Shown here: positions 17,592-59,015 of the stretch, piece by piece
How the letters are laid out: each line of letters opens with the position of its first letter
How positions within the stretch are numbered: position 1 is the stretch's first letter
Source of the DNA: a virus
Taxonomy: Duplodnaviria; Caudoviricetes
Virus record (IMG/VR): IMGVR_UViG_2974753081_000001
Location: 64,001-128,000 of that record
Reading direction: 5' to 3' (one strand)
Length of the DNA: 64,000 nucleotides
Made by a program: the position numbers and the translations under genes
The notes under the pieces: model-generated
What the model was told of the DNA's origin: nothing
Databases searched by the model: none
The model's input: the letters and a program-made list of their open reading frames with translations, nothing else

Positions 17592-17619
17592 GTAACGATC
17601 TGGCCGGGGTAAGCGATAC
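17592..17619 (+). promoter_or_regulatory. SigD-like promoter GTAACG-N16-CGATAC upstream of tRNA cluster
   Basis: Member of 12-copy family. Confidence 0.7.
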
Positions 17620-17735
17620 TCCTACCGACCCAGTGACTACCGGCGACACCCTCCACCCAACACATGCCGTCGGACTCGCGGGTCCGAACAACTGAATAGC
17701 GGGGCGCGTTCCTTAGCCGGGGGCGCGTCCGCAAT

Positions 17736-17808
17736 GCCCTGCTAGCTCACCGGACAGAGCAGCCGTTTCCTAGGCGGCGGGTACCAGGTTCGATTCCTGG
17801 GTGGGGCA
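17736..17808 (+). tRNA. tRNA-Arg (anticodon CCT)
   Basis: Acceptor GCCCTGC/GTGGGGC, D-arm GCTC/GAGC, anticodon stem GCCGT/GCGGC with loop TT-CCT-AG, T-arm CCAGG-TTCGATT-CCTGG. Confidence 0.9.
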
Positions 17809-17809
17809 C

Positions 17810-17919
17810 GGGGCGGTATTGGAGGAGTCATGACCTTCGTTCCGCCAGGGGCGCTCGGACGCGGGCGTGGCAAAGGAAGGACGAAATCCCGACGAGGTGG
17901 TTCGAATCCACCAGCCCCA
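17810..17919 (+). ncRNA. Atypical tRNA-like RNA (~110 nt)
   Basis: GGGGC/GCCCC terminal stem, T-arm GGTGG-TTCGAAT-CCACC, long central stem, no canonical D or anticodon arm. Confidence 0.55.
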
Positions 17920-17968
17920 CGATGGCGAGCGAGGGCTCGTCACACTCCCCGACCAAAGGAAAAATCTC

Positions 17969-18406
17969 ATGGAGACCCGTACCCTGATCGAGCCGTCTGC
18001 TCAGGTCATCACCATCACCACCCTCAAGCCCGGCGACACCTACAAGCGCCTGGTGAAGAACTACTCCGACACCTACGACCTGCGCATCGGCGTGGTCACC
18101 GACGTGTTGAACAACGGCTCCGAGGCGGTCCTCACCGCGCTGGAGTTCTCTGGCAGCTACAGCACCGCCGAGGCCGAGCTGAAGGTGTTCGGCGGCGACA
18201 AGGACCTCGCGCTGTTCGCGACGACTCCCGAGGAGGTCGGGGTTTACCTCGATGACGTGAACGAGCGGGCTCACCAGATGGCGGAGTCCAAGCGGCGCGA
18301 GCTGGAGAAGGCCGAGGCCGTCGTGCGCGCGGTTGAGGACACCCTGGCGAGGGCACGCGGTGGTCAGCTGTCGGCTCCCGTGGTCGAGCGCCAGGTCGAG
18401 AGCTGA
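17969..18406 (+). CDS. Hypothetical protein
   Basis: CCCGACC + AAGGA RBS; start re-called. Confidence 0.75.
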   Translation: METRTLIEPSAQVITITTLKPGDTYKRLVKNYSDTYDLRIGVVTDVLNNGSEAVLTALEFSGSYSTAEAELKVFGGDKDLALFATTPEEVGVYLDDVNERAHQMAESKRRELEKAEAVVRAVEDTLARARGGQLSAPVVERQVES

Positions 18407-18756
18407 TGCCCACGCCCTACGATGCCGCCCGTGCGGAACGTGTGGCCGATCTGACGAGGCAGGGCCTGAAGGCTCACGTCATCGCCGATCGTCTCGGCAT
18501 CACCGTCCGCACGGTCCGGCGGGACCGGGCTCGCACCGGGACTTCGCGCGAGGTGCCGCGTCGGCTCTCCGAGGAGCAGGTGAGTCGCGCGCTGTCGATG
18601 CTGCAGGACGGCTGCGCCTACATCGAGGTCAGTCGCACGCTCGGCATTCCGACCAAGACGCTGCGGCAGCGGTTCCCCGGCTACGGCATGGAGTCCGGCT
18701 GGGACTGGGCGCATCAGCTGCGCGGCATCGGCAAGTACCGACAGGAGGCGTCGTGA
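18406..18756 (+). CDS. Double HTH DNA-binding protein
   Basis: IADRLGITVRTVRR and VSRTLGIPTKTL. Confidence 0.75.
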   Translation: MPTPYDAARAERVADLTRQGLKAHVIADRLGITVRTVRRDRARTGTSREVPRRLSEEQVSRALSMLQDGCAYIEVSRTLGIPTKTLRQRFPGYGMESGWDWAHQLRGIGKYRQEAS

Positions 18757-19052
18757 ACAAGGACCCGTTCGAGAACCACCACGAGATCGAGGTGCGCGTG
18801 GCGCTGAAGGGCGAGAAGTCGGCCATGCTCTCTTCGCGGCAGCTCATCTATGCCTCGGTGGAGGTCTCCGACATCGAGCTGATCCAGCGGTTCACCTACG
18901 TGCTCTCCCAGATGACCATCGAGGTGGAGAACGCGCTGCGAGCCAAGATCGGACTGCCCTCGCTGTCGCAGGCGGAGCGGATGGAGTACGAGCGGCAAGC
19001 CTACGAGCGCACGGCACAGCTCCAGCGCCTGCGGGGCAGGGGGATGGTCTGA
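18753..19052 (+). CDS. Hypothetical protein
   Basis: AGGAGG RBS, GTGA coupling. Confidence 0.65.
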   Translation: MNKDPFENHHEIEVRVALKGEKSAMLSSRQLIYASVEVSDIELIQRFTYVLSQMTIEVENALRAKIGLPSLSQAERMEYERQAYERTAQLQRLRGRGMV

Positions 19053-19258
19053 TGGCGCTCGGCGAGATGCCTCGCACTCCAGTGTGGATGGCGGTCCACA
19101 CCCATCGGTCCGGTCGGACGACGGTCTCGGTGGGGTACTCCAAGGCGACCGAGGTCGATGTGCAGTACGCGCCGTGGTGGCCCAACGAGGTCAGCCGGAC
19201 GCTGTACAACTACGAGGACGGCTTGCCTGTCCCGCAGATGGGATGGGGGCGCGAGTGA
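19052..19258 (+). CDS. Hypothetical protein
   Basis: Coupled ORF. Confidence 0.55.
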   Translation: MALGEMPRTPVWMAVHTHRSGRTTVSVGYSKATEVDVQYAPWWPNEVSRTLYNYEDGLPVPQMGWGRE

Positions 19259-19434
19259 GGCTGCATCGGATCAAGGTAAGACGACCGAGCATCTATCCGC
19301 CGGTCTGGATCAACCACGGCCCCGGCATCGTCCGGCTGGACGAGGCGAACTGGCGCACCTTCAACGGCATCGGGTGGAAGTGGGGCACCTACACCTACTG
19401 GCTGTCCATTCGGTCTGAGGACGGGGTGCTCTGA
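19255..19434 (+). CDS. Hypothetical protein
   Basis: GTGA coupling. Confidence 0.5.
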   Translation: MRLHRIKVRRPSIYPPVWINHGPGIVRLDEANWRTFNGIGWKWGTYTYWLSIRSEDGVL

Positions 19435-19685
19435 TGGACCCGGTCCTGTTCCTGCTGCTCTACGGTCTCGGCGTGCTTGTCGAGGCGCTGTACCTGTACT
19501 GGCCGCTGCTGTTCGGCTCGAAAGAAAATCGCGAATCTACTCGCTTGGACTACGAGTCGGTCGCCCACTCCGACGACTGGGTGCTCATCCACGCGGTCAT
19601 CTGGCTGACCTCGGTCACGTTCCCGGTGATCTGGGCGGTGACTTTGGTCGTATTCGCCAAGCGAGTCCTGAAAGGGAAGCCATGA
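19434..19685 (+). CDS. Small membrane protein (2 TM)
   Basis: Two hydrophobic segments. Confidence 0.6.
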   Translation: MDPVLFLLLYGLGVLVEALYLYWPLLFGSKENRESTRLDYESVAHSDDWVLIHAVIWLTSVTFPVIWAVTLVVFAKRVLKGKP

Positions 19686-19710
19686 ACCAGTCATCCGAGG
19701 GGATGGATCA

Positions 19711-20562: not shown

Positions 20563-20755
20563 GGTGACGCGGTTCGAGGTCGGGCAGACGGTCCTCACCC
20601 CCATCGGCAGGAGAGCGACGATCGTGCGTGGGCCGTATCGCAAGTACGGCGAGGACTGCTACGACATCGTCCAGCCCACCGATCTCGGGGAGCCTGCCCG
20701 CTACACCCATCGCTACTTCGCCCGTCAGCTCAGGGCGGCAGGAGACGACGGATGA
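20555..20755 (+). CDS. Hypothetical protein
   Basis: AAGGAGG RBS. Confidence 0.55.
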   Translation: MTEVTRFEVGQTVLTPIGRRATIVRGPYRKYGEDCYDIVQPTDLGEPARYTHRYFARQLRAAGDDG

Positions 20756-21000
20756 ATATGCTGCGCCTGAATCTGCCGAAGGGGAAGTGGAACAACCCAG
20801 ATATTCCGGAACGCGCCCTGCTGGTATCCCCTGGCTCCATCGTGGCCCTGGAAACGCTCAACCCTGATGTGACGGTGGTCCATGTGCAGGGGTATCGGTG
20901 GACGGTAATGCACTCGGTGGCTGCGATAGAGGCGATGCTCCAGGAGGCAGAGAAGTACGAACTGTACTCCCAGATCACCCGAGAACACCCCCTGAAGTAA
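20752..21000 (+). CDS. Hypothetical protein
   Basis: AGGAG RBS, ATGA coupling. Confidence 0.6.
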   Translation: MNMLRLNLPKGKWNNPDIPERALLVSPGSIVALETLNPDVTVVHVQGYRWTVMHSVAAIEAMLQEAEKYELYSQITREHPLK

Positions 21001-21018
21001 AAAACCGACATCGAGGAA

Positions 21019-21088
21019 GTGTTGACACTACGTCTGCCCAGTCGGCCACTGTCCTTCGCACGCTGGGTGACCAGCGTAGTGTTAACAC
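21019..21088. promoter_or_regulatory. Inverted repeat made of two GTAGTGTYRACAC motifs
   Basis: GTGTTGACACTACG (21019-32) ... CGTAGTGTTAACAC (21075-88). Confidence 0.65.
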
Positions 21089-21138
21089 GAACCCCGACAG
21101 ATTCTCTCGACAAATTATTGACAAGGACGTGACAAGCA

Positions 21139-21821: not shown

Positions 21822-21849
21822 GTAACGATTCCCGACCAAGGAGCGATGT
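21822..21849 (+). promoter_or_regulatory. SigD-like promoter GTAACG-N16-CGATGT
   Basis: Family member; spacer contains CCCGACCAAGGAG. Confidence 0.65.
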
Positions 21850-21856: not shown

Positions 21857-22057
21857 ATGAGCGATCAAATGCACACCAAGGCGTGGTTCACCGGAGCTGC
21901 CACGGGTAGCGCGGATAACGCCGATGACGAGTGGCGGGACTTCAGGCTCGACGGCGAGCGCGCTATCGAGGTGTCGTTTCTGGTGCCCGATTCGGCCATC
22001 GATGGGGTCCGCAAGCTGCTGAACGAGCGCGGCACGCTCACCTTCGCCAAGGCGTAA
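21857..22057 (+). CDS. Hypothetical protein
   Basis: Start re-called after promoter/RBS. Confidence 0.55.
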   Translation: MSDQMHTKAWFTGAATGSADNADDEWRDFRLDGERAIEVSFLVPDSAIDGVRKLLNERGTLTFAKA

Positions 22058-22081
22058 CGGAGCGAGGGCTCCGAGCGATGT
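22054..22081 (+). promoter_or_regulatory. SigD-like promoter GTAACG-N16-CGATGT
   Basis: Family member; includes upstream TAA stop. Confidence 0.65.
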
Positions 22082-22197: not shown

Positions 22198-22458
22198 ATG
22201 ACCGTCCCAGACAACGAGCTGATCGACCGGCTGCGCAAGCGGTACACCGTCGCTACGCCTCCGCCCTGCTCGGTCTGTGGCGCAGAGCTGCGGATCAGTT
22301 CGATGGGTGGCGGTCGGCAGACGTGGGCGTGCTCCACGACGCTCAGCAACGTCTCGGACGGTGGGCTGAAGCACTACGCCCAGAGCCAGTGGACGTGTGT
22401 GGTCGGCGACCCGGACGTCATCGAGCTGATCTCTCGCTACCAGGCGTCGGCGTCGTGA
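22198..22458 (+). CDS. Hypothetical protein (Cys-containing)
   Basis: GAGGAGG RBS. Confidence 0.65.
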   Translation: MTVPDNELIDRLRKRYTVATPPPCSVCGAELRISSMGGGRQTWACSTTLSNVSDGGLKHYAQSQWTCVVGDPDVIELISRYQASAS

Positions 22459-25524: not shown

Positions 25525-25552
25525 GTAACGAAACGCCGAGGGGCACCGATAC
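25525..25552 (+). promoter_or_regulatory. SigD-like promoter GTAACG-N16-CGATAC
   Basis: Family member, intergenic. Confidence 0.7.
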
Positions 25553-25591: not shown

Positions 25592-25789
25592 ATGTTCATC
25601 CCGCTCAAGCGAGCGCATGTCACTTACGACGACGGCATCCACGTCCAGAGCAACATGCCCTTCATCGACTTCGGCCCCGTCACCATCGGTAGCGAGGTCT
25701 ACTGGTCCGGTCGTCGCGCCGCCCAGTCCCCGGAGCGCACGTTCATCAATTCCCGTCACGTCCACGTCGTCAGGGAGGTGTCGGAATGA
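25592..25789 (+). CDS. Hypothetical protein
   Basis: GAGGAGG RBS. Confidence 0.6.
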   Translation: MFIPLKRAHVTYDDGIHVQSNMPFIDFGPVTIGSEVYWSGRRAAQSPERTFINSRHVHVVREVSE

Positions 25790-33562: not shown

Positions 33563-34005
33563 TGGTGGAACTGACCCGAGCCCACGACCTCTCGGCTCGC
33601 GATGGTGTTGACGCTGCGGTCGCTGATGCGATCTCGATGCTGCGGGACGCGAAGAAGGCCATGCGCTCACGCACGCTCGCCGAGCTGATGCGCCTGGAGG
33701 AGTCCAGCGCCGAGTTCGGCACGTTCTCGGTGGTCCGCACTGCCGACCGCAAGGGGTACCGCGACCCGCGCAGCTTCAACGACGAGCGCAGCCCCTACCA
33801 GGACGACCAGAAGGTCCTCATCACCATCGAGATCGAGGTGGAGGACTGGGACCTGACCGACGGCTTCGTCACTCACGCCGCCGAGCTGGAGCGAACCGAG
33901 GAGGCGCTGCAGGCCCAGGTGGAGATCGCCGAGGCGCAGCGCGTCATCGCCGAACAACAGGAGCGCATCGCACGGCTCGCGAAGAAGGTCGCCCCTGGGC
34001 CGTAA
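33562..34005 (+). CDS. Hypothetical protein, C-terminal coiled coil
   Basis: TGATG coupling. Confidence 0.6.
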   Translation: MVELTRAHDLSARDGVDAAVADAISMLRDAKKAMRSRTLAELMRLEESSAEFGTFSVVRTADRKGYRDPRSFNDERSPYQDDQKVLITIEIEVEDWDLTDGFVTHAAELERTEEALQAQVEIAEAQRVIAEQQERIARLAKKVAPGP

Positions 34006-34029
34006 CGTTTTCTGACAGACCACCGATAC
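34002..34029 (+). promoter_or_regulatory. SigD-like promoter GTAACG-N16-CGATAC
   Basis: Family member, upstream of Ltp gene. Confidence 0.7.
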
Positions 34030-34076: not shown

Positions 34077-34607
34077 ATGAGCACGAACTACCCGCAGGCC
34101 CCCATCCCCGCCACCGAGCCCAAGCGCAAGAAGCGCAAGTGGCCGTGGGTGCTGGGCATCCTCGCCGTCCTCGGCATCATCATCGCGGTTGCCAGCCCGA
34201 AGGAGGCCGAGACCTCCGAGCCCGCTGCGGCCCCGACCTCGCAGGCCGAGGCCCCGGCCAACGTGCCGACGCCCACTCCGGCTCCGGTCAAGACCGAGGA
34301 GGCCGAGTCGTCGGACTCGCTGTCCAAGGAGCAGAAGAACGCAGTGCGCTCGGCAGAGCAGTACGTCTCGATGACCGGGTTCAGCCGGTCGGGCCTGATC
34401 GAACAGCTCAGCTTCGAGGGCTACTCGACCGAGGACGCTACGGTGGCCGTCGACAGCATGGACATCGACTTCAACGAGATGGCTGCCAAGTCGGCCAAGC
34501 AGTACCTGGACATGACCGGGTTCTCGCGCGATGGTCTCATCGAGCAGCTGACCTTCGAGGGGTACACCCCCGAGCAGGCTGCCTACGGTGCCGACAACGC
34601 TGAGTGA
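34077..34607 (+). CDS. Ltp-family (superinfection-exclusion-type) membrane-anchored protein
   Basis: TM anchor, P/A linker, two repeats A..SA.QY..MTGFSR.GLIEQL.FEGY....A. Confidence 0.85.
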   Translation: MSTNYPQAPIPATEPKRKKRKWPWVLGILAVLGIIIAVASPKEAETSEPAAAPTSQAEAPANVPTPTPAPVKTEEAESSDSLSKEQKNAVRSAEQYVSMTGFSRSGLIEQLSFEGYSTEDATVAVDSMDIDFNEMAAKSAKQYLDMTGFSRDGLIEQLTFEGYTPEQAAYGADNAE

Positions 34608-36500: not shown

Positions 36501-36954
36501 GTACGCCACCACGGGTGTCGTGCTGCTGGCCCTGCTCATCGGCATGTACTGCTCGGCAGACCACCTTCGACGCCTGCGGAGGCAGAGCATGGACTGGACC
36601 GAGAACGCCCGGCAGCTGATCGCGATGGAGGATGCTGCTCTCGCGCGGAGGTGTTCTGAGGAGAACGCACGCTGGCTGGAGGACCCGACCCACTACCTCA
36701 TGGAGGTCACTGGACTCGATGTCGCCAAGGTGCTGTTCGGCTACGTGCAGCGCGAGAAGGTATCTCTGGTCAAGGCACCCCGTCCCCGCCATACGACGGC
36801 AGGGTCCCTACCCAATACCGAGATCGTTCTCCATTTCACCAGGCCCGAGGAACTGGTCTCCCAGATCGTCGCCATGTCGCGCGTGTCGCCGCCGACGGGT
36901 GGGCAACTCGCGCGCATCGTCCGGGAAGTCGAGGACGGTTCCATCGACCTGTAA
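36487..36954 (+). CDS. Hypothetical protein with N-terminal TM
   Basis: Hydrophobic N-terminus; start re-called. Confidence 0.55.
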   Translation: MSVPEYATTGVVLLALLIGMYCSADHLRRLRRQSMDWTENARQLIAMEDAALARRCSEENARWLEDPTHYLMEVTGLDVAKVLFGYVQREKVSLVKAPRPRHTTAGSLPNTEIVLHFTRPEELVSQIVAMSRVSPPTGGQLARIVREVEDGSIDL

Positions 36955-36979
36955 CGATCTGCCCCGACCTGAGCGATAC
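36951..36979 (+). promoter_or_regulatory. SigD-like promoter GTAACG-N17-CGATAC
   Basis: Family member. Confidence 0.65.
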
Positions 36980-37017: not shown

Positions 37018-37776
37018 ATGAGTCACTTTGTCGTCGTCGTCGCACTGCCCGGCCACCTGCTCACCCACGATGAGCTGGACGCGGCCTTGGATGCTGCACT
37101 GGCTCCCTACGACGAGAACGTCGAGATGCCGCGCTACGTGCGGCACACTCGCGACGAGCTGATTAGGCGAGAGCGCGAGAGCATGGAGCAGATGTTCTCG
37201 ATCGGATCGGTTGGAAGATACTTGGCCGATCCCGTCGAGTACGCCGAGAAGTACGGCGGCATGAAAGGGCACCTGGCCCACGTCCGCCAGCTCATCGATG
37301 AGAAGCCGCTCGACACCTGGACCGACGAGCAGTGGCACATCAGGGCGCTGCAGAGCTACGAGCCCGACGAGATCGGCCCCGTCGGCGAGGTCTACTCCAC
37401 CTACAACCCACGCTCGAAGTGGGACTGGTGGAGTGTCGGTGGCCGCTGGGCGGGGTTCTTCAAGTTCCGCGAAGGCATCGATGAGGCGACCTACGACCGG
37501 CTCGGGACCAGGCCGTCGATCTTCGACCTGCCCGAGGACATGGACCCGATGGCCACCGACTGCGCGCGCAAGGGCGACCTCACGCGCGAGAGCCTGGACC
37601 GCACTCCATATGCCTACGTGGACCCCGAGCTGGGGTGGATCGAGAAGGGCCAGATGGGGTGGTTCGGGATGTCCTCGGGCGACAAGCCTGAGTCCGAGTG
37701 GCAGGAGCAGTACGCCGCGTGGCTCGGCTCCCTGGACGACAAGACCTGGCTCGTGGCTGTCGACGCACATATCTGA
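37018..37776 (+). CDS. Conserved-type phage hypothetical protein
   Basis: MSHF.V ... NPRSKWDWW.VGGRW ... GQMGWFG ... VDAHI. Confidence 0.8.
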   Translation: MSHFVVVVALPGHLLTHDELDAALDAALAPYDENVEMPRYVRHTRDELIRRERESMEQMFSIGSVGRYLADPVEYAEKYGGMKGHLAHVRQLIDEKPLDTWTDEQWHIRALQSYEPDEIGPVGEVYSTYNPRSKWDWWSVGGRWAGFFKFREGIDEATYDRLGTRPSIFDLPEDMDPMATDCARKGDLTRESLDRTPYAYVDPELGWIEKGQMGWFGMSSGDKPESEWQEQYAAWLGSLDDKTWLVAVDAHI

Positions 37777-37787: not shown

Positions 37788-38255
37788 ATGATGGAAAAAA
37801 TGCCGGACGACCGATTCGTCTGTGTCCTGTCTCCTGACGAGCCGCTGGAGCGGTTCGATGACGAGGGCAAGAAGGTCAGCGTTCGCGAGTACGTGGTGCA
37901 GCGCCGCGATGACGGGTACGAGGTCATTCTGTACCAGCGGTATTCGGCCAACTCCAGCTCGTCCTACACCATCAGCAAGGGGATGGATCGGGGGATCGCG
38001 ATGATGCTGGCCGACGAGCTGAACAAGCGCGAGAGCTACGATCCGCAGCCGTCGTCGTCTCTGGGCAAGGTGAGGTTCATGCTGGCAGACCTCCGCAAGC
38101 AGGTGTCGCGCGAGATCGATGAGCACGACCGTCGGCTGTCCACCATGAACGCTTCTCGGGAGGCCCTGGAGGACCTGGAGGATTTGCTGGTGCGCGGGGA
38201 GCCGCTCACCGCCCCCGACGTCGTGAGGCGATTCAACCAGGCGGGGGTGCTGTGA
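37788..38255 (+). CDS. Hypothetical protein
   Basis: Start re-called. Confidence 0.6.
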   Translation: MMEKMPDDRFVCVLSPDEPLERFDDEGKKVSVREYVVQRRDDGYEVILYQRYSANSSSSYTISKGMDRGIAMMLADELNKRESYDPQPSSSLGKVRFMLADLRKQVSREIDEHDRRLSTMNASREALEDLEDLLVRGEPLTAPDVVRRFNQAGVL

Positions 38256-38782
38256 TGGCCCGCTTCGTACACCGTCCGACGACCATTGAGGCGATGCAGT
38301 GGACCGGAGACAACGCCGACGAACTCAGTCGGTGGATGGCCGGGTTCGGCGAGGCGTCGGCGCTGCGCATCTACACCGAGACCGGGGCCGAACAGGTCGT
38401 GCTCGATCTCTACGTCGCGGCCAACGACACCTGGCTCCCGCTGGAGATGGGTGAGTGGGTGGCGCGCGACGTCGCGGGCTTCTATCCGATCAAGGACTAC
38501 GTGTTCCAGGAGAGCTACGAGTCCGAGCCCGAGGTCACCATGCTCACCCAGCCGTGCGGCTACGGGTCGTGCGTGGAGGGGTTCGGACACCTCGGGCCGC
38601 ATCGGTGTTCGTGCGGCAGGCCGTGTAACGATCCGGAGCTGAACTGCGATGTACATGCAGCCGGTTGGGCCGAGGAGCCCCACCAGGCCAACGGCATGGA
38701 GGTGCTCGGGAAGATGCGCGCTGCTGGCGAAGTGGACGACGCGCTCGGGGCCTCCGACAGACACGGAGGATTCGATGCTTAG
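38252..38782 (+). CDS. Hypothetical protein
   Basis: IEAMQWTG.N ... FYPIK..VF..SY phage motif. Confidence 0.65.
   Translation: MMARFVHRPTTIEAMQWTGDNADELSRWMAGFGEASALRIYTETGAEQVVLDLYVAANDTWLPLEMGEWVARDVAGFYPIKDYVFQESYESEPEVTMLTQPCGYGSCVEGFGHLGPHRCSCGRPCNDPELNCDVHAAGWAEEPHQANGMEVLGKMRAAGEVDDALGASDRHGGFDA
38625..38652 (+). promoter_or_regulatory. SigD-like promoter GTAACG-N16-CGATGT (intragenic)
   Basis: Exact family match. Confidence 0.55.
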
Positions 38783-38996
38783 CCCGTTCGAGCTGATCAA
38801 GGCTCGGTTGAAGGAGCAGGTCCAGCGGCACACGCCGCTCGGCAGCGAGGTCGACACCATCGAGAGCGTGGTGTTCTTCAGCGAGGAAGTTCGCGTTCAC
38901 TACATCGACCAGCACGGTGACATGTGGTCGTGTCTCGTGCCGGTCGAGGCGCTGCTGACGGCGTTCTTCGACCTGGTGATGTCGGAGGGGTCATGA
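38775..38996 (+). CDS. Hypothetical protein
   Basis: GGAGG RBS. Confidence 0.55.
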   Translation: MLSPFELIKARLKEQVQRHTPLGSEVDTIESVVFFSEEVRVHYIDQHGDMWSCLVPVEALLTAFFDLVMSEGS

Positions 38997-39683: not shown

Positions 39684-39973
39684 TCCCCACGCGCGAGATC
39701 GTCCGGGAGTTCGACCGGCGGTATTCGCTCTACGCCGAGCCGACGTCGAAGGGGATCACGGTGTACTCCGACCCCAGCGAGCCCGACATCCTGACGGTTC
39801 TGCACCTGCCCGAGGACGGCAAGTGGTGGTGGCGCACGGCCATGCACGAGGACGAGAACGGAACCCCGGTGCTCGCGAATCAGTGGGCCGCGAATGGCGA
39901 CATGGACATCCCCACCCTGGTCCGGATGGTCGCCATCACCATCTTCGGCACGATCTGTATCTCTCCGAAGTAA
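39680..39973 (+). CDS. Hypothetical protein
   Basis: GTGA coupling. Confidence 0.55.
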   Translation: MIPTREIVREFDRRYSLYAEPTSKGITVYSDPSEPDILTVLHLPEDGKWWWRTAMHEDENGTPVLANQWAANGDMDIPTLVRMVAITIFGTICISPK

Positions 39974-39997
39974 CGCTCCGGCGGTCTCCGCCGATGT
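39970..39997 (+). promoter_or_regulatory. SigD-like promoter GTAACG-N16-CGATGT
   Basis: Family member. Confidence 0.7.
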
Positions 39998-40026
39998 ACA
40001 GATCACACCCCGACCAAGGAGAAAAT

Positions 40027-40482
40027 ATGGACGAGCTGATGTCCGGCATGACTGAGATGTGCGGCGTGGCGCATCCCGACAACCGTTCGGACGCCAACCT
40101 GATCACCTACTGCTACCTGAACGATGGTCATGAAGGACCGCATCGTGATCCGGAGGGGCGGGCCTGGGTCGGCAACTTCCGTGTGACCCCCGTTAATACC
40201 TCGCCCGACAAGGACTTCCATGATCTCGTGGCCCGAGTCGCGGCGATCGAGGAGAAGCTGGACATCACGCCGGAGTCCGGTCCGAAGAACCCGGCATACA
40301 TCCTCGGCTACAACATCCTGCTGCGATCACTGGTGGACCAGATCGAGAACCTGCACCAGCGAAGCGACACCACCGGCAAGTGCGTCGGATGCCACAAGCC
40401 TTGGCCTTGTCCCAGTGCTGACGCGATAGCCGAGCATCGTGCGCTCGTGGAGGACTTTCGCGCACGGGGGTCGCTACGATGA
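40027..40482 (+). CDS. Hypothetical protein (Cys/His motifs)
   Basis: CCCGACCAAGGAG before ATG; C..C...WPC. Confidence 0.65.
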   Translation: MDELMSGMTEMCGVAHPDNRSDANLITYCYLNDGHEGPHRDPEGRAWVGNFRVTPVNTSPDKDFHDLVARVAAIEEKLDITPESGPKNPAYILGYNILLRSLVDQIENLHQRSDTTGKCVGCHKPWPCPSADAIAEHRALVEDFRARGSLR

Positions 40483-43545: not shown

Positions 43546-43929
43546 ATGGCTGCCAAGCACGACCCCACCAACCACCCGTTCGAGGTCGGCATGGAGGTGC
43601 TGATCGATGACGTGAACCGTCGCGGTCGCCCGCTCACCGAGGCCGTCGTCTCCAAGGTCGGTCGCAAGCTCGTCTACGCGACCATGTACGGGCGCGACGT
43701 CGGGTTCCGCCTGGAAACCCGCGCGGCCAACGACAACTACGGCCACCAGAGCATCTGGACGCCGGAGGAGGTCGCTGAGCGCGAGCGCCGGGCGTACCTG
43801 GACCGTCGGCTCGCAACCTACGGCCTGCGCTCAGAGTTCGGAGGCACGAAGTTCCGCGAGCTGCCGACTGAGGTGGTTGAGGAGCTGCTGGAGGTCCTGG
43901 ACCGGCACGCCGAGCGTGATTCGGACTAG
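43546..43929 (+). CDS. Hypothetical protein
   Basis: V.KVGRK motif; GAGGA RBS. Confidence 0.65.
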   Translation: MAAKHDPTNHPFEVGMEVLIDDVNRRGRPLTEAVVSKVGRKLVYATMYGRDVGFRLETRAANDNYGHQSIWTPEEVAERERRAYLDRRLATYGLRSEFGGTKFRELPTEVVEELLEVLDRHAERDSD

Positions 43930-44012: not shown

Positions 44013-44756
44013 ATGACCCCGACCAAGACCAATGCCCGCACCCGGATGCTCGCGCGCGTCGCCGATCTGGGGTGGGAGCTGGACCCCACCGCGAAGGTGC
44101 CTCTGTCGCGCTTCGAACGTCACGTCCTGGTGCAGAATGAGACCGCGTTCCGCAAGCGCGCCGCTCACGGCGGCTGGTGGAAGATACTGCTCGACTACAG
44201 TCAGACCAGCGGGTCCTGGCGCACGGTTATCGGAACCACACTGCGTGGCATCCAGATCAACTGGACCGAAAACGAGGTTCATTCCGGCAAGGTGATTGGG
44301 GTGCTGAAGAATCCCCGATCATCTCGATACGGGTCCAGATTTCTGTGGCTTGCCTCTGGCGACCCCAGCGACCCGATGAAGAAGCACGCCGAGACGTTCC
44401 TGGCTGATCCTGACCTGGTCGTGTGGCTCAGTCAGGAGCTGCGGCACAAGGACATCGAGGAGACCCGAGCGCGCCATGCGGAGCAGCGACGCATCGAGAA
44501 ACTGCGCGAGCAGCTGCTCCCGGTCAAGGGCCTGACGGAGAATGCGCGGTGGAGGTTCGCCTACGTCTCTCCATTCAAGCGCGCATCCGCCGAGCTGATC
44601 AAAGCTGACGGCCTCACCGATCTGCCGAAGGTGATGGCCGAGACGTGGAATGAGTTGGAGCGTCTGGTCGAGTACCTGACGCCGGAGGCCCGCGAGGCAT
44701 TCCAGAAGCACCTGGACGACCTGAGCGGCGCTGCCGTGACGGACTTGGACGCCTGA
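44013..44756 (+). CDS. Hypothetical protein
   Basis: GAGGAG + A-tract before ATG. Confidence 0.7.
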   Translation: MTPTKTNARTRMLARVADLGWELDPTAKVPLSRFERHVLVQNETAFRKRAAHGGWWKILLDYSQTSGSWRTVIGTTLRGIQINWTENEVHSGKVIGVLKNPRSSRYGSRFLWLASGDPSDPMKKHAETFLADPDLVVWLSQELRHKDIEETRARHAEQRRIEKLREQLLPVKGLTENARWRFAYVSPFKRASAELIKADGLTDLPKVMAETWNELERLVEYLTPEAREAFQKHLDDLSGAAVTDLDA

Positions 44757-45253
44757 TGGCCGAGCTGAACAAGCCAACGGCAGTGCTCGTAGACATCGAC
44801 GGCACGCTCTGCGATGTCCGGACGATCCGGCACTACGTGATCGGGCCGGATAAGGACTTCGAGGCGTTCCACACCGCGAGTCTCCACTGCCCTCCGCACC
44901 CGCAGGCCCTGGACTTCATCCGTAACTCCATCGAGGACGGCCACGACGTCGTGTTCGTCTCCGCCCGGCAGGAGAAGTTCCGCCAGATCACCGAGTTGTT
45001 CATCGCGATGCACGTGCCTCGGGTGCAGTGGTTCGGCCCATTCATGCGCGAGCACGGTGACCGCCGACCGGACGTCGAGGTCAAGCGCGACATCCATCAC
45101 CAGCTGAGCAAGTGGTGGGACATCGTTGGAGCCATTGACGACAACCCCGCCATCGTGGCCCTCTGGCGAGAGCTGGGCATCCCCGTGGAGGTCGTCCCCG
45201 GCTGGGACGCTGGGGCTGCCGCCAGCTACGTCCAATCCCAATCCACCCAGTAG
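44756..45253 (+). CDS. HAD phosphatase (PNK 3'-phosphatase-like)
   Basis: VDIDGTL, VSAR, MR..GD.RPD..VK, IDD. Confidence 0.85.
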   Translation: MAELNKPTAVLVDIDGTLCDVRTIRHYVIGPDKDFEAFHTASLHCPPHPQALDFIRNSIEDGHDVVFVSARQEKFRQITELFIAMHVPRVQWFGPFMREHGDRRPDVEVKRDIHHQLSKWWDIVGAIDDNPAIVALWRELGIPVEVVPGWDAGAAASYVQSQSTQ

Positions 45254-45279: not shown

Positions 45280-45699
45280 ATGAAGAAGACCATCGCTGCC
45301 CTCGCGGCTGCCGCCGCCATCACGCTCGCCACCGGCTGCACCATCGAGACAGTCAGCGAGCCCACGACCACGACCACCCCGGCCCCGCTGCCGGTCGTCA
45401 CCACGACCACCGTCGACACTCCGCCCCCGCCGACCACCACCGAGATCGACAGTGAGTGGGTGGCCGATCGCGCCTACATCGCTGCGCTCGACCAGCAGGG
45501 CATCGACTACCCGACCGAGCAGGACGCCATCGACCTCGGCCACTCGATCTGTGAGGCCCTGGACTCCGGCAACTCCCCGCAGGAGCTGATCCGTGTCGGC
45601 GTGGACGCCAGCGGCATGGACTCCCAGGACGTCGCCTTCATGGTTGGCGCGGCCATCGGGTCGATCTGCCCCCGCCACGACGATCTGATCCCCGAGTAA
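45280..45699 (+). CDS. Lipoprotein with DUF732-like domain
   Basis: Lipobox LATGC; D.AYIAAL..QGI...G..IC..L..G ... ICP. Confidence 0.8.
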   Translation: MKKTIAALAAAAAITLATGCTIETVSEPTTTTTPAPLPVVTTTTVDTPPPPTTTEIDSEWVADRAYIAALDQQGIDYPTEQDAIDLGHSICEALDSGNSPQELIRVGVDASGMDSQDVAFMVGAAIGSICPRHDDLIPE

Positions 45700-45723
45700 C
45701 ACTTCGCTGGGCCGCAGCGATAC
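45696..45723 (+). promoter_or_regulatory. SigD-like promoter GTAACA-N16-CGATAC
   Basis: Family member. Confidence 0.65.
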
Positions 45724-45756
45724 ACCCAACACACCCCGACCAGAGGAGAAAAAATC

Positions 45757-46203
45757 ATGAGTACTCGCAGTGTCACCGGCATCTGGAAGCCCGAAGGTGA
45801 TCCGATCGGAGTGGGCGTCTACGTCCACAGCGATGGCTATCCGGAGGGGCGTCTACCGGACCTGAAGAAGATGATCACGCGCGACGGTCCCGAGAAGGTA
45901 GTCCAGACGATCCTGTCGGCCAAGCGTGGCGGCTGGTCCTACCTCGACGTCGAGTACGCCAACAATTATCTCGGCGAGGACCGTGCGAAGCTCGTGCCGG
46001 GCTACGGCCTGATGTTCCTCGACGGAGATCACGAGCCCAAGCCGCTGAGACACAGTGAGGTCATCAGGACTTTCTGGTGTGAGTACGCCTACTACATCGA
46101 CGTCGAGACCGGCGACATCCACTGGTACGAGAGCAGCGACCCCACCGAGCACGTCGAGCTGTTCTCCGACTACGTGACCGAGGTCAAGAAGGTGGATTCC
46201 TGA
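45757..46203 (+). CDS. Conserved-type phage hypothetical protein
   Basis: MSTRS ... Y.H.DGYP ... EYAY. Confidence 0.75.
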   Translation: MSTRSVTGIWKPEGDPIGVGVYVHSDGYPEGRLPDLKKMITRDGPEKVVQTILSAKRGGWSYLDVEYANNYLGEDRAKLVPGYGLMFLDGDHEPKPLRHSEVIRTFWCEYAYYIDVETGDIHWYESSDPTEHVELFSDYVTEVKKVDS

Positions 46204-50435: not shown

Positions 50436-50636
50436 ATGATGATCGAATGCCGTGTCCGCGCTGATGTGGACATCAAGAAGTGGGCCGAGCTGTACGACAC
50501 CGACGGCCAAAAGATCTCTGAGGTCCGCAAGGACATCCGCACCTGGATGCGCGAGACGGTGATCGACGCGATGGAGGACGAGGGCTTGCTGCTGCTCGAC
50601 CCCGACGGCAAGCCGGTAACGAACCTGTTCGAGTAG
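50436..50636 (+). CDS. Hypothetical protein
   Basis: AAGGAG RBS. Confidence 0.55.
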   Translation: MMIECRVRADVDIKKWAELYDTDGQKISEVRKDIRTWMRETVIDAMEDEGLLLLDPDGKPVTNLFE

Positions 50637-50643
50637 CCGATAC
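50616..50643 (+). promoter_or_regulatory. SigD-like promoter GTAACG-N16-CGATAC
   Basis: Family member. Confidence 0.7.
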
Positions 50644-50685: not shown

Positions 50686-51321
50686 ATGCCCATCCTGACC
50701 ATCGACGGCATCGAGGTGACGATGACCGTCGCCGAGTTTGTCGAGTACCAGCGGCTGTCGAAAGCCGAACCGCCCCCGACGCCCGAGCCGGAGCCTCGCA
50801 AGACCCGTGGCAGCTCGCGCAAGCGCAACGACGCCGAACGTCGTCGCATGGAGCTGCAGCGGCAGGGGTACGCCAACGTCACCAACCTGATGAGCACCAT
50901 CGTGTTCGTGCATTCGGTGCTGGAGTATGTGGTGCCCGGCTCCGAGAGCTACGACATGGACGGTGTCGAGGGTCGGCACGGCTGGCTGCTCTCGCGCGAG
51001 TCGGGGGAGGTGAACCGGCTCAACCGCTATGTCTCGGTCGCGCGCTCGCTGCAGCCCGGCGTCGGCGAGTACCTCTGGCCCCCGGCCATCGCGGCGGCGC
51101 TCATCTGCATCGAGATCGACTACGGCGTCGACACCGCCATTGCGGCCCAGGGCGCGCTGTCGCGGCGCGGCGTGATCACTGCGGTGGTGAAGCTGCACTC
51201 CAAGGCGTTCCTGAAGCTGTCGGAGCAGGATCGCGCCGCCGGTCACATCCGGCTGCACCGGAACCAGCAGATGGAGGTCTGGAGCGGCACCTATGACCTG
51301 CTCGTGAAGGCGGTGGAGTGA
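50686..51321 (+). CDS. Hypothetical protein
   Basis: Two CCCGACC + AAGGAG. Confidence 0.7.
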   Translation: MPILTIDGIEVTMTVAEFVEYQRLSKAEPPPTPEPEPRKTRGSSRKRNDAERRRMELQRQGYANVTNLMSTIVFVHSVLEYVVPGSESYDMDGVEGRHGWLLSRESGEVNRLNRYVSVARSLQPGVGEYLWPPAIAAALICIEIDYGVDTAIAAQGALSRRGVITAVVKLHSKAFLKLSEQDRAAGHIRLHRNQQMEVWSGTYDLLVKAVE

Positions 51322-51337: not shown

Positions 51338-51365
51338 GTAACGCTCTGGCTCGCTCGGACGATGT
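51338..51365 (+). promoter_or_regulatory. SigD-like promoter GTAACG-N16-CGATGT
   Basis: Family member, intergenic. Confidence 0.7.
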
Positions 51366-51398: not shown

Positions 51399-51713
51399 AT
51401 GGCAGAACAAGGCGACCCCGCTCAGGTCCTCAGCGGCCTCGGGGTCGGCGGCATGCGCCCACTCGCGGCGCTGGAGGAGTCGCGGCAGGCAGGCGAGGGC
51501 TTTCAGGCCATCGCCGCCTTTGTCGATTGGCTGCGAAACAACGGCATGGGTATCGGGCTGCGCCCCGTGCTCCCCGACGCCCGGTTGATCCCGCTGACGG
51601 ACCCGGCGGAGGACTTCGCTGCTGCGTTCTACGACATCGACATCGAGGCACTACATGCCGATCGTGCCGAGTACATCTATCGGCAGCAGGCAGCTCGCGG
51701 CGGTCGGCTGTGA
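51399..51713 (+). CDS. Hypothetical protein
   Basis: CCCGACC + AAGGAG. Confidence 0.65.
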   Translation: MAEQGDPAQVLSGLGVGGMRPLAALEESRQAGEGFQAIAAFVDWLRNNGMGIGLRPVLPDARLIPLTDPAEDFAAAFYDIDIEALHADRAEYIYRQQAARGGRL

Positions 51714-52135
51714 CTGGTCACTGCTCGGCCCCCATCGAGCACCGGGTGTTCTGCTACAACGGCGCGGAGGCCCGCCCCATCGAGGACTTCCGGCTCTGGA
51801 GCGACGACGAAGCCCCCACCCACCAGGTGGAGGCACAGGACGTGCGGGTCGGCGACTGGATTGTTGCCACCACCCCTTACGATTCGTCGCGATCCAAGCG
51901 TCCATTCCGGGAGTACAGGGTCACCCAGACTCTCGCGCGCGAGGGCGCGGTGACTCTGGTGATGCACATCGGCTACGGACTCCGCCTCGGCCACAACTAC
52001 GACGTCCACATTCAGCTTCACCCCACCGACCTGATCTGGGTCTATCGAATCCCGAGGAGTACAGATGAGCAAGAAGACCGTGCGCTTCGCCGAGCCGACC
52101 GTGATGGTGGCTTCGTACAGCCAGCCGAACCCTGA
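51710..52135 (+). CDS. Hypothetical protein
   Basis: GTGA coupling; 3' end overlaps thyX. Confidence 0.5.
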   Translation: MTGHCSAPIEHRVFCYNGAEARPIEDFRLWSDDEAPTHQVEAQDVRVGDWIVATTPYDSSRSKRPFREYRVTQTLAREGAVTLVMHIGYGLRLGHNYDVHIQLHPTDLIWVYRIPRSTDEQEDRALRRADRDGGFVQPAEP

Positions 52136-52808
52136 GCTGCGAGACATCCTCGGCGAGGTGAACGTCCCGGCGCTGCAGGTGGTCCCGGAGTTCGCCGGAC
52201 GCGCGTGCTACCAGAGCTGGGACAAGCCCAACCCGGCGACCGCTACCAACGCGGGGTACCTGGCGAACATCATCAAGCAGAAGCACTTCAGCGTGATCGA
52301 GCACAGCTCCATCGGGTTCTACATCCAGGGCGTCTCGCGCTCGCTGACCCACGAGCTGGTCCGGCACCGGCACTTCTCCTACAGCCAGCTGAGTCAGCGG
52401 TATGTCGACAGCTCCGACGTCGGGTTCGTGCTGCCGCCGGACTTCGAGGGCGACGACGAAGCGATCGAGGTGTTCCGCGCGGACTGCGAGGACCGGCTGG
52501 AGATGTACCAGTGGTTCCAGGACCATCAGGCCAAGAAGGGCCTCGGCAAGAAGGCCACCCGACAGTCGGCTCGGTCGGTGCTGCCCAACGCCACCGAGAC
52601 CAAGCTGGTGATGACCGGCAACCTTCGGGCCTGGATGGAGTTCATGGTCAAGCGCGACAACCCCGCCGCCGACGTCGAGATTCAGCGGTTGGCCCGCATG
52701 ATCGGTCTGCACCTCGGCACCCTGGCCCCGAGCGTGTTCGGCAGCGAGGCCCGCCCGCTCTGGGACGAGTTCCTGCGCGAGGCCGCTCAGCACGAGGCTC
52801 GGCAATGA
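52065..52808 (+). CDS. thyX: Flavin-dependent thymidylate synthase
   Basis: AGRACYQS, H.SVIEH, HELVRHRHFSYSQLSQRY, AR.VLPN, A..EI. Confidence 0.97.
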   Translation: MSKKTVRFAEPTVMVASYSQPNPELRDILGEVNVPALQVVPEFAGRACYQSWDKPNPATATNAGYLANIIKQKHFSVIEHSSIGFYIQGVSRSLTHELVRHRHFSYSQLSQRYVDSSDVGFVLPPDFEGDDEAIEVFRADCEDRLEMYQWFQDHQAKKGLGKKATRQSARSVLPNATETKLVMTGNLRAWMEFMVKRDNPAADVEIQRLARMIGLHLGTLAPSVFGSEARPLWDEFLREAAQHEARQ

Positions 52809-55102: not shown

Positions 55103-55128
55103 GGCCCCAGGCCACCAAGGAGAAAATC

Positions 55129-55650: not shown

Positions 55651-55664
55651 GATACGATGGCCGC

Positions 55665-56423: not shown

Positions 56424-56430
56424 GGTCGAC

Positions 56431-57174
56431 ATGGCGAAGCTGAAGAACGTCGGCGCGTACCCGAACACCGAGGACTCGCTCGGGCGCACCGACTTCATGA
56501 ACACGACGTTCTCCGACCGAGGCGTGGTGCCCGCCGACGTCACCGCTGCGATGGATCAGGCCAAGGCCCCGCTCGCGCTGAAGACCTACATCGACGCCCA
56601 GGACGCGCTGTACACCACCAAGAGCTACGCCGACACCCAGGACAACCTGCTCATCGATGCCAGCCAGCTCGGGGCGTCCAACGGCATCGCCCAGCTCGGA
56701 GCCAACAGCAAGGTCACCGCGTCGGCTCTGCCACTGGCCGCAACCGTCCGGTCGCACAACTTCACCTACGGCACGATCAAGACGGTCTCCAGCGCGGGCG
56801 TCTACTGCACCAGCTTCACCGTCCCCAACCCAGGGTTCCGGTGGCAGCCGCTGTGGTCGGGGTGGACGATGTCGCGCTACTACGCCTCGCCCTACTGCTT
56901 TCCGGGCGTCTCGATCCGCGACAGCACCGGCAAGTGGGTGGCCCGAGGCTACGGATCGGGGCGCAACCTCAACGAGTGGTATCCCACCCCAATCACCAAC
57001 ACCCGCTATGAGACCGCTCCGCCGATCTGGTACGACGGCTCGGAGACGTTCGATCTGTACTACACCCGCGAGTACGGCACCGGGCAGGTTCAGGTCGGCC
57101 ACCTGTACTCGTGGTTCCAGTGCATGGTCGTCGCCGCAGCCAGCTCCACCACATCGCCGGTCGTCATCACGTAG
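56431..57174 (+). CDS. Fibre/minor tail-like protein, paralog 2
   Basis: KTYIDAQD, KSYADTQD, NGIAQLGANSKV..S.LP. Confidence 0.65.
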   Translation: MAKLKNVGAYPNTEDSLGRTDFMNTTFSDRGVVPADVTAAMDQAKAPLALKTYIDAQDALYTTKSYADTQDNLLIDASQLGASNGIAQLGANSKVTASALPLAATVRSHNFTYGTIKTVSSAGVYCTSFTVPNPGFRWQPLWSGWTMSRYYASPYCFPGVSIRDSTGKWVARGYGSGRNLNEWYPTPITNTRYETAPPIWYDGSETFDLYYTREYGTGQVQVGHLYSWFQCMVVAAASSTTSPVVIT

Positions 57175-57184
57175 GAGGACATCC

Positions 57185-57955
57185 ATGCCCGCTCTCCGTA
57201 GCGTCGGCCCCGTCCCGGTCTCGGGCAACGGTCTGGTCACCCGTGGCACCGCCGACGCCATGCTCACCGGCATGGTGGGACATGACGTTCTCGCCTCGAA
57301 GGTGGATGCCGCTGTCGCGCCGTATGCGCAGAAGTCCTACGTCGACACCCAGGACGGCTTGCTCGCGACCAAGGCCCAGGTGGACGCTGGGGACGCGCTG
57401 CTGATGCCGACCAGCTGGAAGAACGCCGCCAACGGCGTCTGCGGTCTCTCCGGCACCGACCTGCCGACCGCCAGGGTTCCTCGGGTTCCGGTGCTGCCCA
57501 CCATCTTCCAGCGGTCCTGGTACTACAACGACTTCACCCCGCTCGCCGCCAACGTCGGTGCTGAGGGTGAGATTGTCATCCTGAATGCTTCGATGCAGCT
57601 GCCCTCGAATGATCCGAGCGTCTACTACCGATTCATGTGTTTTGGCAACTTCGAGGGGTGGGCGCTCTCCGGCTCTGCCCCCTACAACAACCTCAGCGGC
57701 AAGCCGGTTTTCCGCGTGTATGTCAACGGCTACCTGTGCGGATACGGAGCGGGGCGCAATGGCGCGGGCTCGGCAGCTCCGTCTCCAGTGCCGGTGACCC
57801 CGGTCGCCGACAACCTCGGGCACGTGCCGGGTACCGGATGGACGAACAGCACCGCGACGGTGCGCGTCACCATCGCCTCGGCGTTTGCGAGCACGATGGT
57901 CAAGTACGACCCGACGCCGCAGACGCTGCTGACGATCATCGTCGTATCTGCGTAG
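57185..57955 (+). CDS. Fibre/minor tail-like protein, paralog 3
   Basis: KSYVDTQD, NGVCGLSG..LP; AGGAGG RBS; start re-called. Confidence 0.65.
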   Translation: MPALRSVGPVPVSGNGLVTRGTADAMLTGMVGHDVLASKVDAAVAPYAQKSYVDTQDGLLATKAQVDAGDALLMPTSWKNAANGVCGLSGTDLPTARVPRVPVLPTIFQRSWYYNDFTPLAANVGAEGEIVILNASMQLPSNDPSVYYRFMCFGNFEGWALSGSAPYNNLSGKPVFRVYVNGYLCGYGAGRNGAGSAAPSPVPVTPVADNLGHVPGTGWTNSTATVRVTIASAFASTMVKYDPTPQTLLTIIVVSA

Positions 57956-58010
57956 GGCTTGCACTAAACGCTACACGTGTGTATATTCGTAGGTGTTAGG
58001 GACGCAGTCC
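57956..58010 (+). promoter_or_regulatory. SigA-type promoter cassette 6
   Basis: TTGCAC-N17-TATATT, TACACGTGTGTA, GGAC-GCA-GTCC. Confidence 0.85.
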
Positions 58011-58034
58011 ACCACCCCCACGAAGGGACCTCCG

Positions 58035-58970
58035 ATGACCACCACCGCTACCCGCAAGCACACCCGCAAGCCGATGTCGGCTGCCAAGCGCGAGCAGGCC
58101 GCTGCCGCCCGCAAGGAGCAGGCCGAGGCGCTGCAGGCCGGACTCGCCGCCCAGGTCGCCGAGATGGCTTCGGGTGCCGCGTGGCGCGACTACCTGGACT
58201 TCGCGGGCAACTTCCACCGCTACTCGCTGCGGAACACGCTGCTCATCATGGTTCAGCACCCCACCGCCACCTCGGTCGCCGGATACAAGGCGTGGCAGGA
58301 GCGCGGTCGCCAGGTCATCAAGGGCGAGAAGGCCATCCGCATCTATGGCTTCGCTCAGAAGAAGGTCGAGGACGAGGTGACCAAGGAGGTCACCTACCAG
58401 ACCTACTTCCCCATCGTCTCGGTGTTCGCCGAGGACCAGACCGCGCCGATTACCGACGACATGATCGCCGACATCCGCAAGGCCAACCCGAAGGCGATCA
58501 CGTTCGCCGAGGCTCCGGTCAACCCGACCCAACGCCTGCAGGGCACCGATGACACCGACATCCTCGGGCGCGTCGCGGCGTTCGTGGAGGGCAACGGCTG
58601 GGAGTTCGCCATCGAGGCCGTCGGCGGCGGAGCCAACGGGTTCACCACCATCGACGGCACCAAGCGCGTCGTGGTCGAGGCCAACCTGGCTCCGGCGCAG
58701 CAGGCCAAGACCGCGCTGCACGAGGCCGCGCACATGATCCTCCACACCGACGAGGAGGGCATGGTTCTGGACCGCGCCACCAAGGAGCTGGAGGCCGAGA
58801 GCGCCAGCTACGTCGCCTCCAAGATGCTCGGCCTGGACTCCGAGGGCTACAGCATCGGGTACCTCACCGGCTGGAGCCAGGGCAACCCCGACGCGGTGAA
58901 GGCGACCGCCGAGCGGGTCCTGAAGGCCGCGCACCGGATCATCGAGGCGTTGGACCCCACCGACGACTGA
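58035..58970 (+). CDS. ardC: ArdC-like antirestriction protein (ssDNA-binding + HExxH domain)
   Basis: YS.RN.LLI, VAGY.AW...GRQV.KGEKAI.I, LHEAAH, ELEAE. Confidence 0.8.
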   Translation: MTTTATRKHTRKPMSAAKREQAAAARKEQAEALQAGLAAQVAEMASGAAWRDYLDFAGNFHRYSLRNTLLIMVQHPTATSVAGYKAWQERGRQVIKGEKAIRIYGFAQKKVEDEVTKEVTYQTYFPIVSVFAEDQTAPITDDMIADIRKANPKAITFAEAPVNPTQRLQGTDDTDILGRVAAFVEGNGWEFAIEAVGGGANGFTTIDGTKRVVVEANLAPAQQAKTALHEAAHMILHTDEEGMVLDRATKELEAESASYVASKMLGLDSEGYSIGYLTGWSQGNPDAVKATAERVLKAAHRIIEALDPTDD

Positions 58971-58977
58971 CCGACCC

Positions 58978-59015
58978 GGCGGGGGCTGTAACGAATCGGC
59001 CCCCGCCACCGATCA
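58978..59015 (+). promoter_or_regulatory. Terminator-like hairpin overlapping SigD-like promoter GTAACG-N16-CGATCA
   Basis: GGCGGGGGCTG-TAACGAAT-CGGCCCCCGCC; CGAT at 59010. Confidence 0.6.

Follow-up and report, generated by a model that had tools for sequence, protein, structure and literature searches.

The DNA analysed here (hereafter the window, 64,000 nucleotides in length) comprises bases 64001-128000 of IMG/VR virus record IMGVR_UViG_2974753081_000001, a phage of the Caudoviricetes. Its genome spans 136,319 bp (IMG/VR completeness 100%), has a G+C content of 65% and carries 209 of 210 genes on the + strand, as called by a codon-bias caller made for the present analysis. Dispersed through the window are 12 copies of a two-block element, GTAAC(G/A) followed by CGAT after a spacer of 16 (once 17) nucleotides (nt). 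An initial annotation of this DNA proposed that these copies are promoters matching the consensus of the host extracytoplasmic function (ECF) sigma factor SigD. All 12 lie at exactly the coordinates it listed, and all are on the + (coding) strand. The closest cultured relative is the Rhodococcus phage Finch, a myovirus of 138,896 bp, which shares 56% identity in DnaE and 86% in the major capsid protein and has homologues for 88 of the 210 gene calls. The phage ThyX protein is nearest to the ThyX proteins of Gordonia phages and of Rhodococcus bacteria. Because of the relationship to Finch and these ThyX relatives, the host is very probably a member of the Mycobacteriales. The virus is taken to be a lytic phage of a Rhodococcus/Gordonia-type bacterium.

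The elements, here termed SigD-type promoters, are described in order of position (window coordinates, + strand, unless stated otherwise). The first (17592-17617, GTAACG-N16-CGATAC) lies 119 nt upstream of a tRNA-Arg gene with anticodon CCT (17736-17809), which is the first feature after it; the first protein gene beyond is a homologue of Finch gp208 (17867-18406). At 21822-21847, only 9 nt separate the end of the -10 block from the start codon (ATG) of gene 21857-22057, which encodes 66 aa, and for this reason the predicted transcript may be leaderless; the spacer of this site contains the ribosome-site motif CCCGACCAAGGAG. The next site (22054-22079) precedes gene 22198-22458 by 118 nt, and the site at 25525-25550 (CGATACAC) lies 41 nt upstream of gene 25592-25789. 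A promoter at 34002-34027 is separated by 49 nt from a gene for an Ltp-like lipoprotein of the superinfection-exclusion type (34077-34607; Pfam PF07553, E=5e-29; phrog_15667 and phrog_4980, superinfection exclusion). The sole site with an N17 spacer (36951-36977) lies 40 nt ahead of a distant homologue of Finch gp219 (37018-37776).

Further along, the site at 38625-38650 is located within the 3' part of gene 38255-38782 and 124 nt from gene 38775-38996, whereas the site at 39970-39995 is followed 31 nt on by gene 40027-40482. The only GTAACA variant (45696-45721) precedes a homologue of Finch gp187 (45757-46203) by 35 nt. Two promoters flank gene 50686-51321: one at 50616-50641, which overlaps the end of gene 50436-50636 and lies 44 nt from the start of 50686-51321, and one at 51338-51363, which is followed after 35 nt by gene 51399-51713 and then by thyX (52065-52808) as the second gene. 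The last copy in the window (58988-59013) lies 29 nt upstream of gene 59043-59522; its -35 block lies within the loop of the hairpin GGCGGGGGC/GCCCCCGCC, such that a terminator overlaps the promoter. A thirteenth copy was found at genome position 61501 (window -2499), about 2.5 kb ahead of the window, where it overlaps the 3' end of a gene for a homologue of the Thoeris inhibitor Tad4 (genome 61128-61532, or window -2872 to -2468; PF25186, E=4e-27).

Every site is oriented in the same direction as the gene downstream of it, and a start codon follows CGAT at a distance of 29-68 nt at 9 of the 13 phage sites, and at 29 of the 37 sites of this phage and Finch taken together. The statement that nearly all copies reside at gene boundaries holds for 10 or 11 of the 12; the site at 25525 falls in a weak 60-aa open reading frame that is probably not a gene, and the site at 38625 is inside a real gene of 175 aa. 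At five sites (22054, 34002, 36951, 39970 and 45696), the TAA stop codon of the upstream gene is embedded in GTAAC, as had been noted, and these account for 5 of only 14 TAA stops in the whole genome. The class had also been described as serving tRNAs, an Ltp gene and the thyX region. This is true of the Ltp-like gene and thyX, but only one tRNA follows a site.

The number of copies far exceeds that expected by chance. In the window, 12 matches compare with an expectation of 0.13 and a largest count of 1 among 100 dinucleotide shuffles. The complete genome holds 13 forward matches and no reverse matches, and a control motif with its letters written backwards is absent. The spacing is equally specific, with N16 at 12 sites (11 GTAACG and 1 GTAACA), N17 at one and N15 or N18 at none; no exact motif occurred on the minus strand in this spacing test of the genome. 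The enrichment in strand and spacing over background that had been named as a check on the proposal is thus present. Among the 13 copies, the -35 block is GTAACG in 12 and GTAACA in one, whereas the -10 block is CGAT in all. The extended consensus is GTAACG-N16-CGAT(A/G)(C/T)AC, and a comparison of the site sequences confirmed that the spacers are mutually unrelated. Identity as promoters for SigA, the housekeeping sigma factor, was considered and rejected, in that the invariant bases are CGAT, without a TANNNT pattern or a conserved T at the expected place.

The SigD consensus given in the initial annotation agrees with published data. Chromatin immunoprecipitation sequencing of SigD in Mycobacterium abscessus gave GTAACA/G-N16-CGAT (PMC13537577), and the Corynebacterium glutamicum SigD consensus is GTAAC(A/G) with GAT (PMC6338062). 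A related factor of the same ECF40 group, ShbA of Streptomyces, recognises CGTAAC-N16-CGATGA (PMC12019637). SigD and its membrane-bound anti-sigma factor RsdA are kept across the Mycobacteriales (PMC11175481). The phage motif is equal to the published SigD (ECF40) consensus. Relative to the SigD regulon of Mycobacteriales (PMC13537577, PMC6338062), GTAAC(A/G), CGAT and the 16-bp spacer are identical, whereas the phage sites are about 30 times denser, precede phage genes whose functions are for the most part unknown, have a longer -10 block (CGAT-R-Y-A-C) and in many cases share bases with the stop codon upstream. The likeness to the SigShbA promoters of Streptomyces (hrdBp1; PDB 9ISN; PMC12019637) likewise extends to the ECF40 group, both blocks and the spacing. 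However, hrdB and shbA are the only two targets known for ShbA (PMC12019637), which acts in another bacterial order, whereas the relatives of this phage infect Rhodococcus and Gordonia.

The same class of sites is present in Finch. The Finch genome contains 15 exact matches, all forward, and none to the backwards control; nine further variant sites (eight with CGAC and one N15 site with CGAT) bring the total to 24, again with mutually unrelated spacers. The Finch consensus is GTAACG-N16-CGA(T/C)(A/G)TAC, a start codon lies 30-62 nt downstream at 20 of the 24 sites, and a TAA stop is embedded at nine. Two site positions are orthologous between the phages: one before a gp63-like gene, which heads the rightward replication module, where the site overlaps the end of a Tad4-like gene, and one before the gp208-like gene, for which the Finch counterpart is located at 121248. 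Outside the motif, these orthologous promoter regions are too diverged for alignment with MAFFT, and they were compared by anchoring on the motif. The 2026 paper on the Finch genome mentions neither this promoter class nor any sigma factor (PMC13313380).

Searches on the side of the host revealed a corresponding regulon. Five Rhodococcus/Rhodococcoides genomes, located by searching genome contigs with bacterial ThyX sequences (phage ThyX as query against the genome contigs gave no match), contain 14-28 copies of the motif versus 2-7 of the control, a 4-7 fold enrichment, and many sites are kept between species. In R. navarretei, one match is found directly ahead of an ECF sigma factor gene that is followed by a gene with an RsdA domain (PF16751, E=8e-18). 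Among solved structures, those most similar to this sigma factor were ShbA (9ISN chain F, E=9e-43) and SigD of M. tuberculosis (3VEP, E=6.5e-25). The sequence preceding this sigD-rsdA operon (G006:C1:3401500-3404300, minus strand) is GTAACGcggggaaaattgtcgaCGAT, and the orthologous site is kept in a second Rhodococcus genome, which suggests that Rhodococcus sigD-rsdA is autoregulated. Other R. navarretei matches precede genes for a secreted Ag85-type esterase, a lipoprotein with a Big_10 domain (which we take to be of the L,D-transpeptidase type), and FabD and Wzz-type genes. Judged by their predicted products, the genes behind the R. navarretei sites are the expected envelope regulon.

If SigD-type promoters are active in the phage, the factor that reads them could in principle be supplied by the phage itself. 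The initial annotation had reported no sigma factor gene in the window, and searches with Pfam, TIGR02937 and phmmer agree; its further suggestion of a SigD-like sigma factor encoded beyond the window finds no support, in that none was detected in the complete genome. Specifically, models for the sigma-70 family (PF04542, PF04545 and PF08281 for r2, r4 and r4_2; TIGR02937) gave only short helix-turn-helix (HTH) fragments in the complete genomes of this phage and Finch, region 2 of sigma-70 was found nowhere in either phage, and phmmer with Rhodococcus SigD found nothing in them (best E 0.4). A phage RNA polymerase was also rejected as the reader: all large proteins are structural proteins of the virion, and thus the phage encodes no RNA polymerase. 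As neither a sigma factor nor an RNA polymerase was detected in the complete genome, the host-SigD branch of the proposal is favoured.

An unlikely alternative is that a phage factor nevertheless reads the motif, either as a very divergent sigma factor or as an activator that redirects a host sigma factor in the manner of T4 MotA/AsiA; such a factor would escape recognition from its sequence. In keeping with such a factor, Finch gp84 carries a sigma factor annotation, small HTH proteins weakly resembling sigma region 4 occur in both phages (window 18406-18756 and 63541-63945), and the -10 block extends further in the phage than in host sites. However, gp84 matches region 4 only, through an HTH at residues 52-86, and was rejected as a reader; it has no homologue in the present phage, where an HNH/NUMOD4 homing-type endonuclease (window 13898-14485) fills the matching slot. 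The small Finch gp217-like protein at 63541-63945 was likewise rejected as a sigma factor, as it lacks region 2 and has only an N-terminal HTH (template-modelling score against sigma region 4, 0.44). In addition to the absence of region 2 from profile searches of both phages, there is no single protein family that every phage with the motif possesses (described below). It would take a large coincidence for a non-homologous factor to reproduce the two blocks read by SigD together with their 16-bp spacing, and a MotA-like scheme would need a TANNNT sequence, which the -10 block lacks.

In phages SPO1 and T4, the sigma factor or adaptor is phage-encoded (SPO1 gp28 and gp33-34; T4 gp55 and MotA/AsiA). 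The present system resembles these cascades in having a phage promoter class that is unlike the housekeeping consensus, here standing beside SigA-type promoters. It differs from them in that no phage factor is detectable and the motif equals the consensus of a host sigma factor.

It is also conceivable, at odds slightly lower again, that the motif is recognised by another ECF sigma factor of the host, whether a SigD paralogue or SigH, the specificity of which overlaps that of SigD. Nearly all SigD promoters of C. glutamicum are weakly active with SigH too (PMC6338062), and the R. navarretei genome yields 16 matches to sigma-70 region 2. The phage motif, however, matches the SigD consensus exactly in both blocks and in their spacing, whereas the SigH consensus is different (GGAA(T/C)...GTT; PMC6338062).

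A separate promoter class in the phage bears on where transcription from the SigD-type sites would begin. This SigA-type class (TTGCAC-N17-TATATT) is represented by 13 near-identical cassettes, eleven in the window (28833, 32539, 42595, 42995, 49421, 54664, 57972, 59891, 60375, 61124 and 61487) and two beyond it (genome 25690 and 57856). Each heads a small gene, often behind a GC-rich hairpin, and takes the form gaCTTGCAc-N8-cTACACGTGTGTATATT, with GGTGTCAGG...CCACGGAGGA as the leader behind it. More finely, gaCTTGCAc-N8-c is followed by a palindrome, TACACGTGTGTA, that overlaps the extended -10 element TGTGTATATT, and then by the leader GGTGTCAGGGCCGCAGGCCACC...CCACGGAGGA. No such cassettes occur in Finch. 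Many Finch SigD-type promoters are nonetheless followed by the leader GGTGTAAGG...CCCACGGAGGAC, as is seen after the SigA-type -10 of the present phage and at a matching distance. The same initial transcribed motif, (G)GTGTAAGG(C), also appears after SigD-type -10 blocks in two uncultured phages (G011, L248:10366-13041; G012, L253:18739-19886), and GTGTAAGG looks like a shared 5' leader module. Both promoter types thus have one and the same leader where transcription is predicted to begin, which supports the interpretation as promoters as well as the proposed start point.

These positional features also bear on whether the sites act mainly as something other than promoters, for example as decoys that titrate SigD holoenzyme and thereby dampen the envelope-stress response of the host, as binding sites, or as recombination joints between cassettes. 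There are about 95 sites per Mb in the phage versus about 3 per Mb in Rhodococcus genomes, phage DNA replication would raise their number further, and the sites border small, poorly conserved genes. However, the sites are strictly co-oriented with genes, keep within a narrow range of distances from ribosome sites and start codons, and are followed by the shared leader at a fixed spacing, all of which fits transcription initiation, whereas a decoy would require neither a particular orientation nor a particular position. We therefore regard a predominantly non-promoter role as very improbable.

Taken together, we estimate a probability of roughly two-thirds that the sites are functional promoters, recognised by the RNA polymerase of the host in its SigD-bound form. 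This is the host-sigma form of the initial proposal, and the conservation of the class in Finch, the motif before Rhodococcus sigD-rsdA and the lack of a phage sigma factor or RNA polymerase all point towards it. According to this model, host core RNA polymerase together with SigD, the ECF40-group envelope-stress sigma factor of Mycobacteriales, would read one transcription class of the phage, and the phage itself would contribute no sigma factor. Within SigD, region 4 would contact GTAAC(G/A) at -35 and region 2 would contact CGAT at -10 across the fixed 16-bp spacer. Transcription is predicted to start about 6-8 nt past CGAT, which would leave 5' leaders of about 20-60 nt ahead of the Shine-Dalgarno site. 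SigD might be freed as infection damages the envelope and RsdA is proteolysed, or its basal activity might suffice. The SigD class would run beside the 13 SigA-type cassettes, and it may sustain phage transcription if SigA-dependent transcription is shut off.

Several observations weigh against this model. SigD is normally held by RsdA, and therefore a lytic phage that relies on it would need a hypothetical activation step. The phage -10 block (CGAT-R-Y-A-C) is longer than that of the host sites, which could reflect either promoter strength or a different reader. A test for hydrophobic segments showed no enrichment of envelope or membrane proteins among the downstream genes (2 of 13 in the phage and 1 of 24 in Finch). 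These genes mostly encode cytoplasmic proteins of unknown function, with the Ltp-like lipoprotein in the phage and lysin B in Finch as exceptions, and the tie between the promoter class and envelope functions is weak for this reason. Finally, the sequence searches could have missed a sigma factor or co-factor of the phage if its sequence is highly divergent.

The promoter class is lineage-specific. Among ten cultured actinophages examined, the motif occurs 0-2 times: it is absent from Rhodococcus phage E3, Phrappuccino and Alice, Myrna has two copies, and the remaining six have 0-1 each. Two closer, uncultured relatives (G001 and G002) have one match each; G002, a complete genome of 131 kb, uses an extended -10 class, TGGTACAGT, instead. 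Large viral contigs for re-testing were drawn from a scan with GTAACG-N16-CGATGTAC, in which they were single matches among the matches listed. Four unrelated uncultured phages (G010, G011, G012 and G018; G+C content 49-66%) proved to carry N16-specific copies co-oriented with genes. An all-against-all comparison of the phages with the motif revealed no protein family present in every one of them, and their common factor is therefore most simply host SigD. The sigma factor that G018 does encode was rejected as SigD-like, given an identity of 21% and FliA as its nearest PDB match.

Some of these phages might also encode a small, soluble regulator of SigD. In G010, a frame of 80 aa directly after a SigD-type promoter (C1:71900-72700, minus strand) resembles RsdA with a score of 28.4 bits, which is over the PF16751 cut-off. 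Weaker RsdA-like candidates below the Pfam cut-off occur in G018, as a 66-aa frame after a SigD-type promoter (C1:39000-39700), and in G012. In the present phage and Finch, no RsdA-like anti-SigD protein was detected by Pfam (PF16751), phmmer or a hidden Markov model trained on RsdA-like sequences of hosts and phages. Of these, the Pfam model performs weakly, in that the C. glutamicum RsdA control stayed under its cut-off.

These distributions allow a broader proposal, which we put forward tentatively and at slightly less than even odds. Several unrelated lineages of lytic actinophages, represented by the present phage, Finch and at least four uncultured phages, may each have wired part of their gene expression to host SigD. 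Some lineages would add a soluble anti-SigD protein, whereas the lineage of this phage and Finch would use promoters alone. Because SigD is released on envelope damage, such wiring could turn an alarm of the host into a timer or sensor of the phage's own infection or of superinfection. Alternatively, it could allow transcription to continue after SigA is shut off.

The uncultured phage G011 (153 kb, 54% G+C), for which blastn revealed no cultured relative, has ten SigD-type promoters in a 6-kb stretch (67-73 kb). Nine of these fall in L248:10366-13041, and at six promoters a conserved TTTGC directly follows GTAACG. This addition could represent an overlapping SigA -35 element (TTGCAA-N18-TAGTGT) that would create dual promoters.

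The finding is a variation on ECF40 promoters and phage promoter classes, both already known, and is not a new kind of element. The timing of actinophage transcription is nevertheless little understood, and the general view is that phages either rely on the housekeeping sigma factor or encode one themselves. If the proposal is correct, dependence on a stress-gated host ECF sigma factor would couple the development of the phage to the condition of the cell wall and mycomembrane, and mutations in sigD, rsdA or rip1 would be predicted to alter phage susceptibility. The sites would also offer compact orthogonal promoters for use in Mycobacteriales. Finch, which is in culture and grows on R. erythropolis RIA 643, shares the class, and the host-SigD idea is for this reason directly testable and experimentally tractable.

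Other recurrent sequences were encountered in the same genomes. A palindrome, GTAGTGTTAACAC, with a -10-like hexamer TAGTGT lies in intergenic regions at window 21001-21138 and 62142-62204 and at genome 2161-2194 and 61069-61127, and it is found at matching places in Finch; it is a candidate operator or early promoter. Ahead of virion genes, the sequence TAG(G/A/T)CTGG is present (genome 4609-4707, 19988-20105, 21608-21742 and 42021-42126), and GTAG(T/A/C)CTG precedes virion genes of Finch. These are candidates for a late-promoter element that lacks a -35 block. The sequence CCCCGACCA is located directly upstream of the Shine-Dalgarno site in many leaders of both phages (e.g. window 1811-1846, 3022-3058, 39974-40026, 45700-45756 and 58971-59042). 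Another word, GGCTGACAAGGGCC, occurs twice ahead of the gene for single-stranded DNA-binding protein (window 6198-6319) and again ahead of the corresponding Finch gene, and is a candidate regulatory site.

Additional genes in the window could be assigned from their domains. These include a gene for an ArdC-N plus M78 peptidase protein of the anti-restriction type (58035-58970), a phage ProQ-C-like protein (43546-43929) and a PNKP-type phosphatase (44756-45253). A DNA methylase (PF01555) is encoded at 62205-63539, and its N-terminal part matches Finch gp210, which is annotated as a ParB-like nuclease domain protein.

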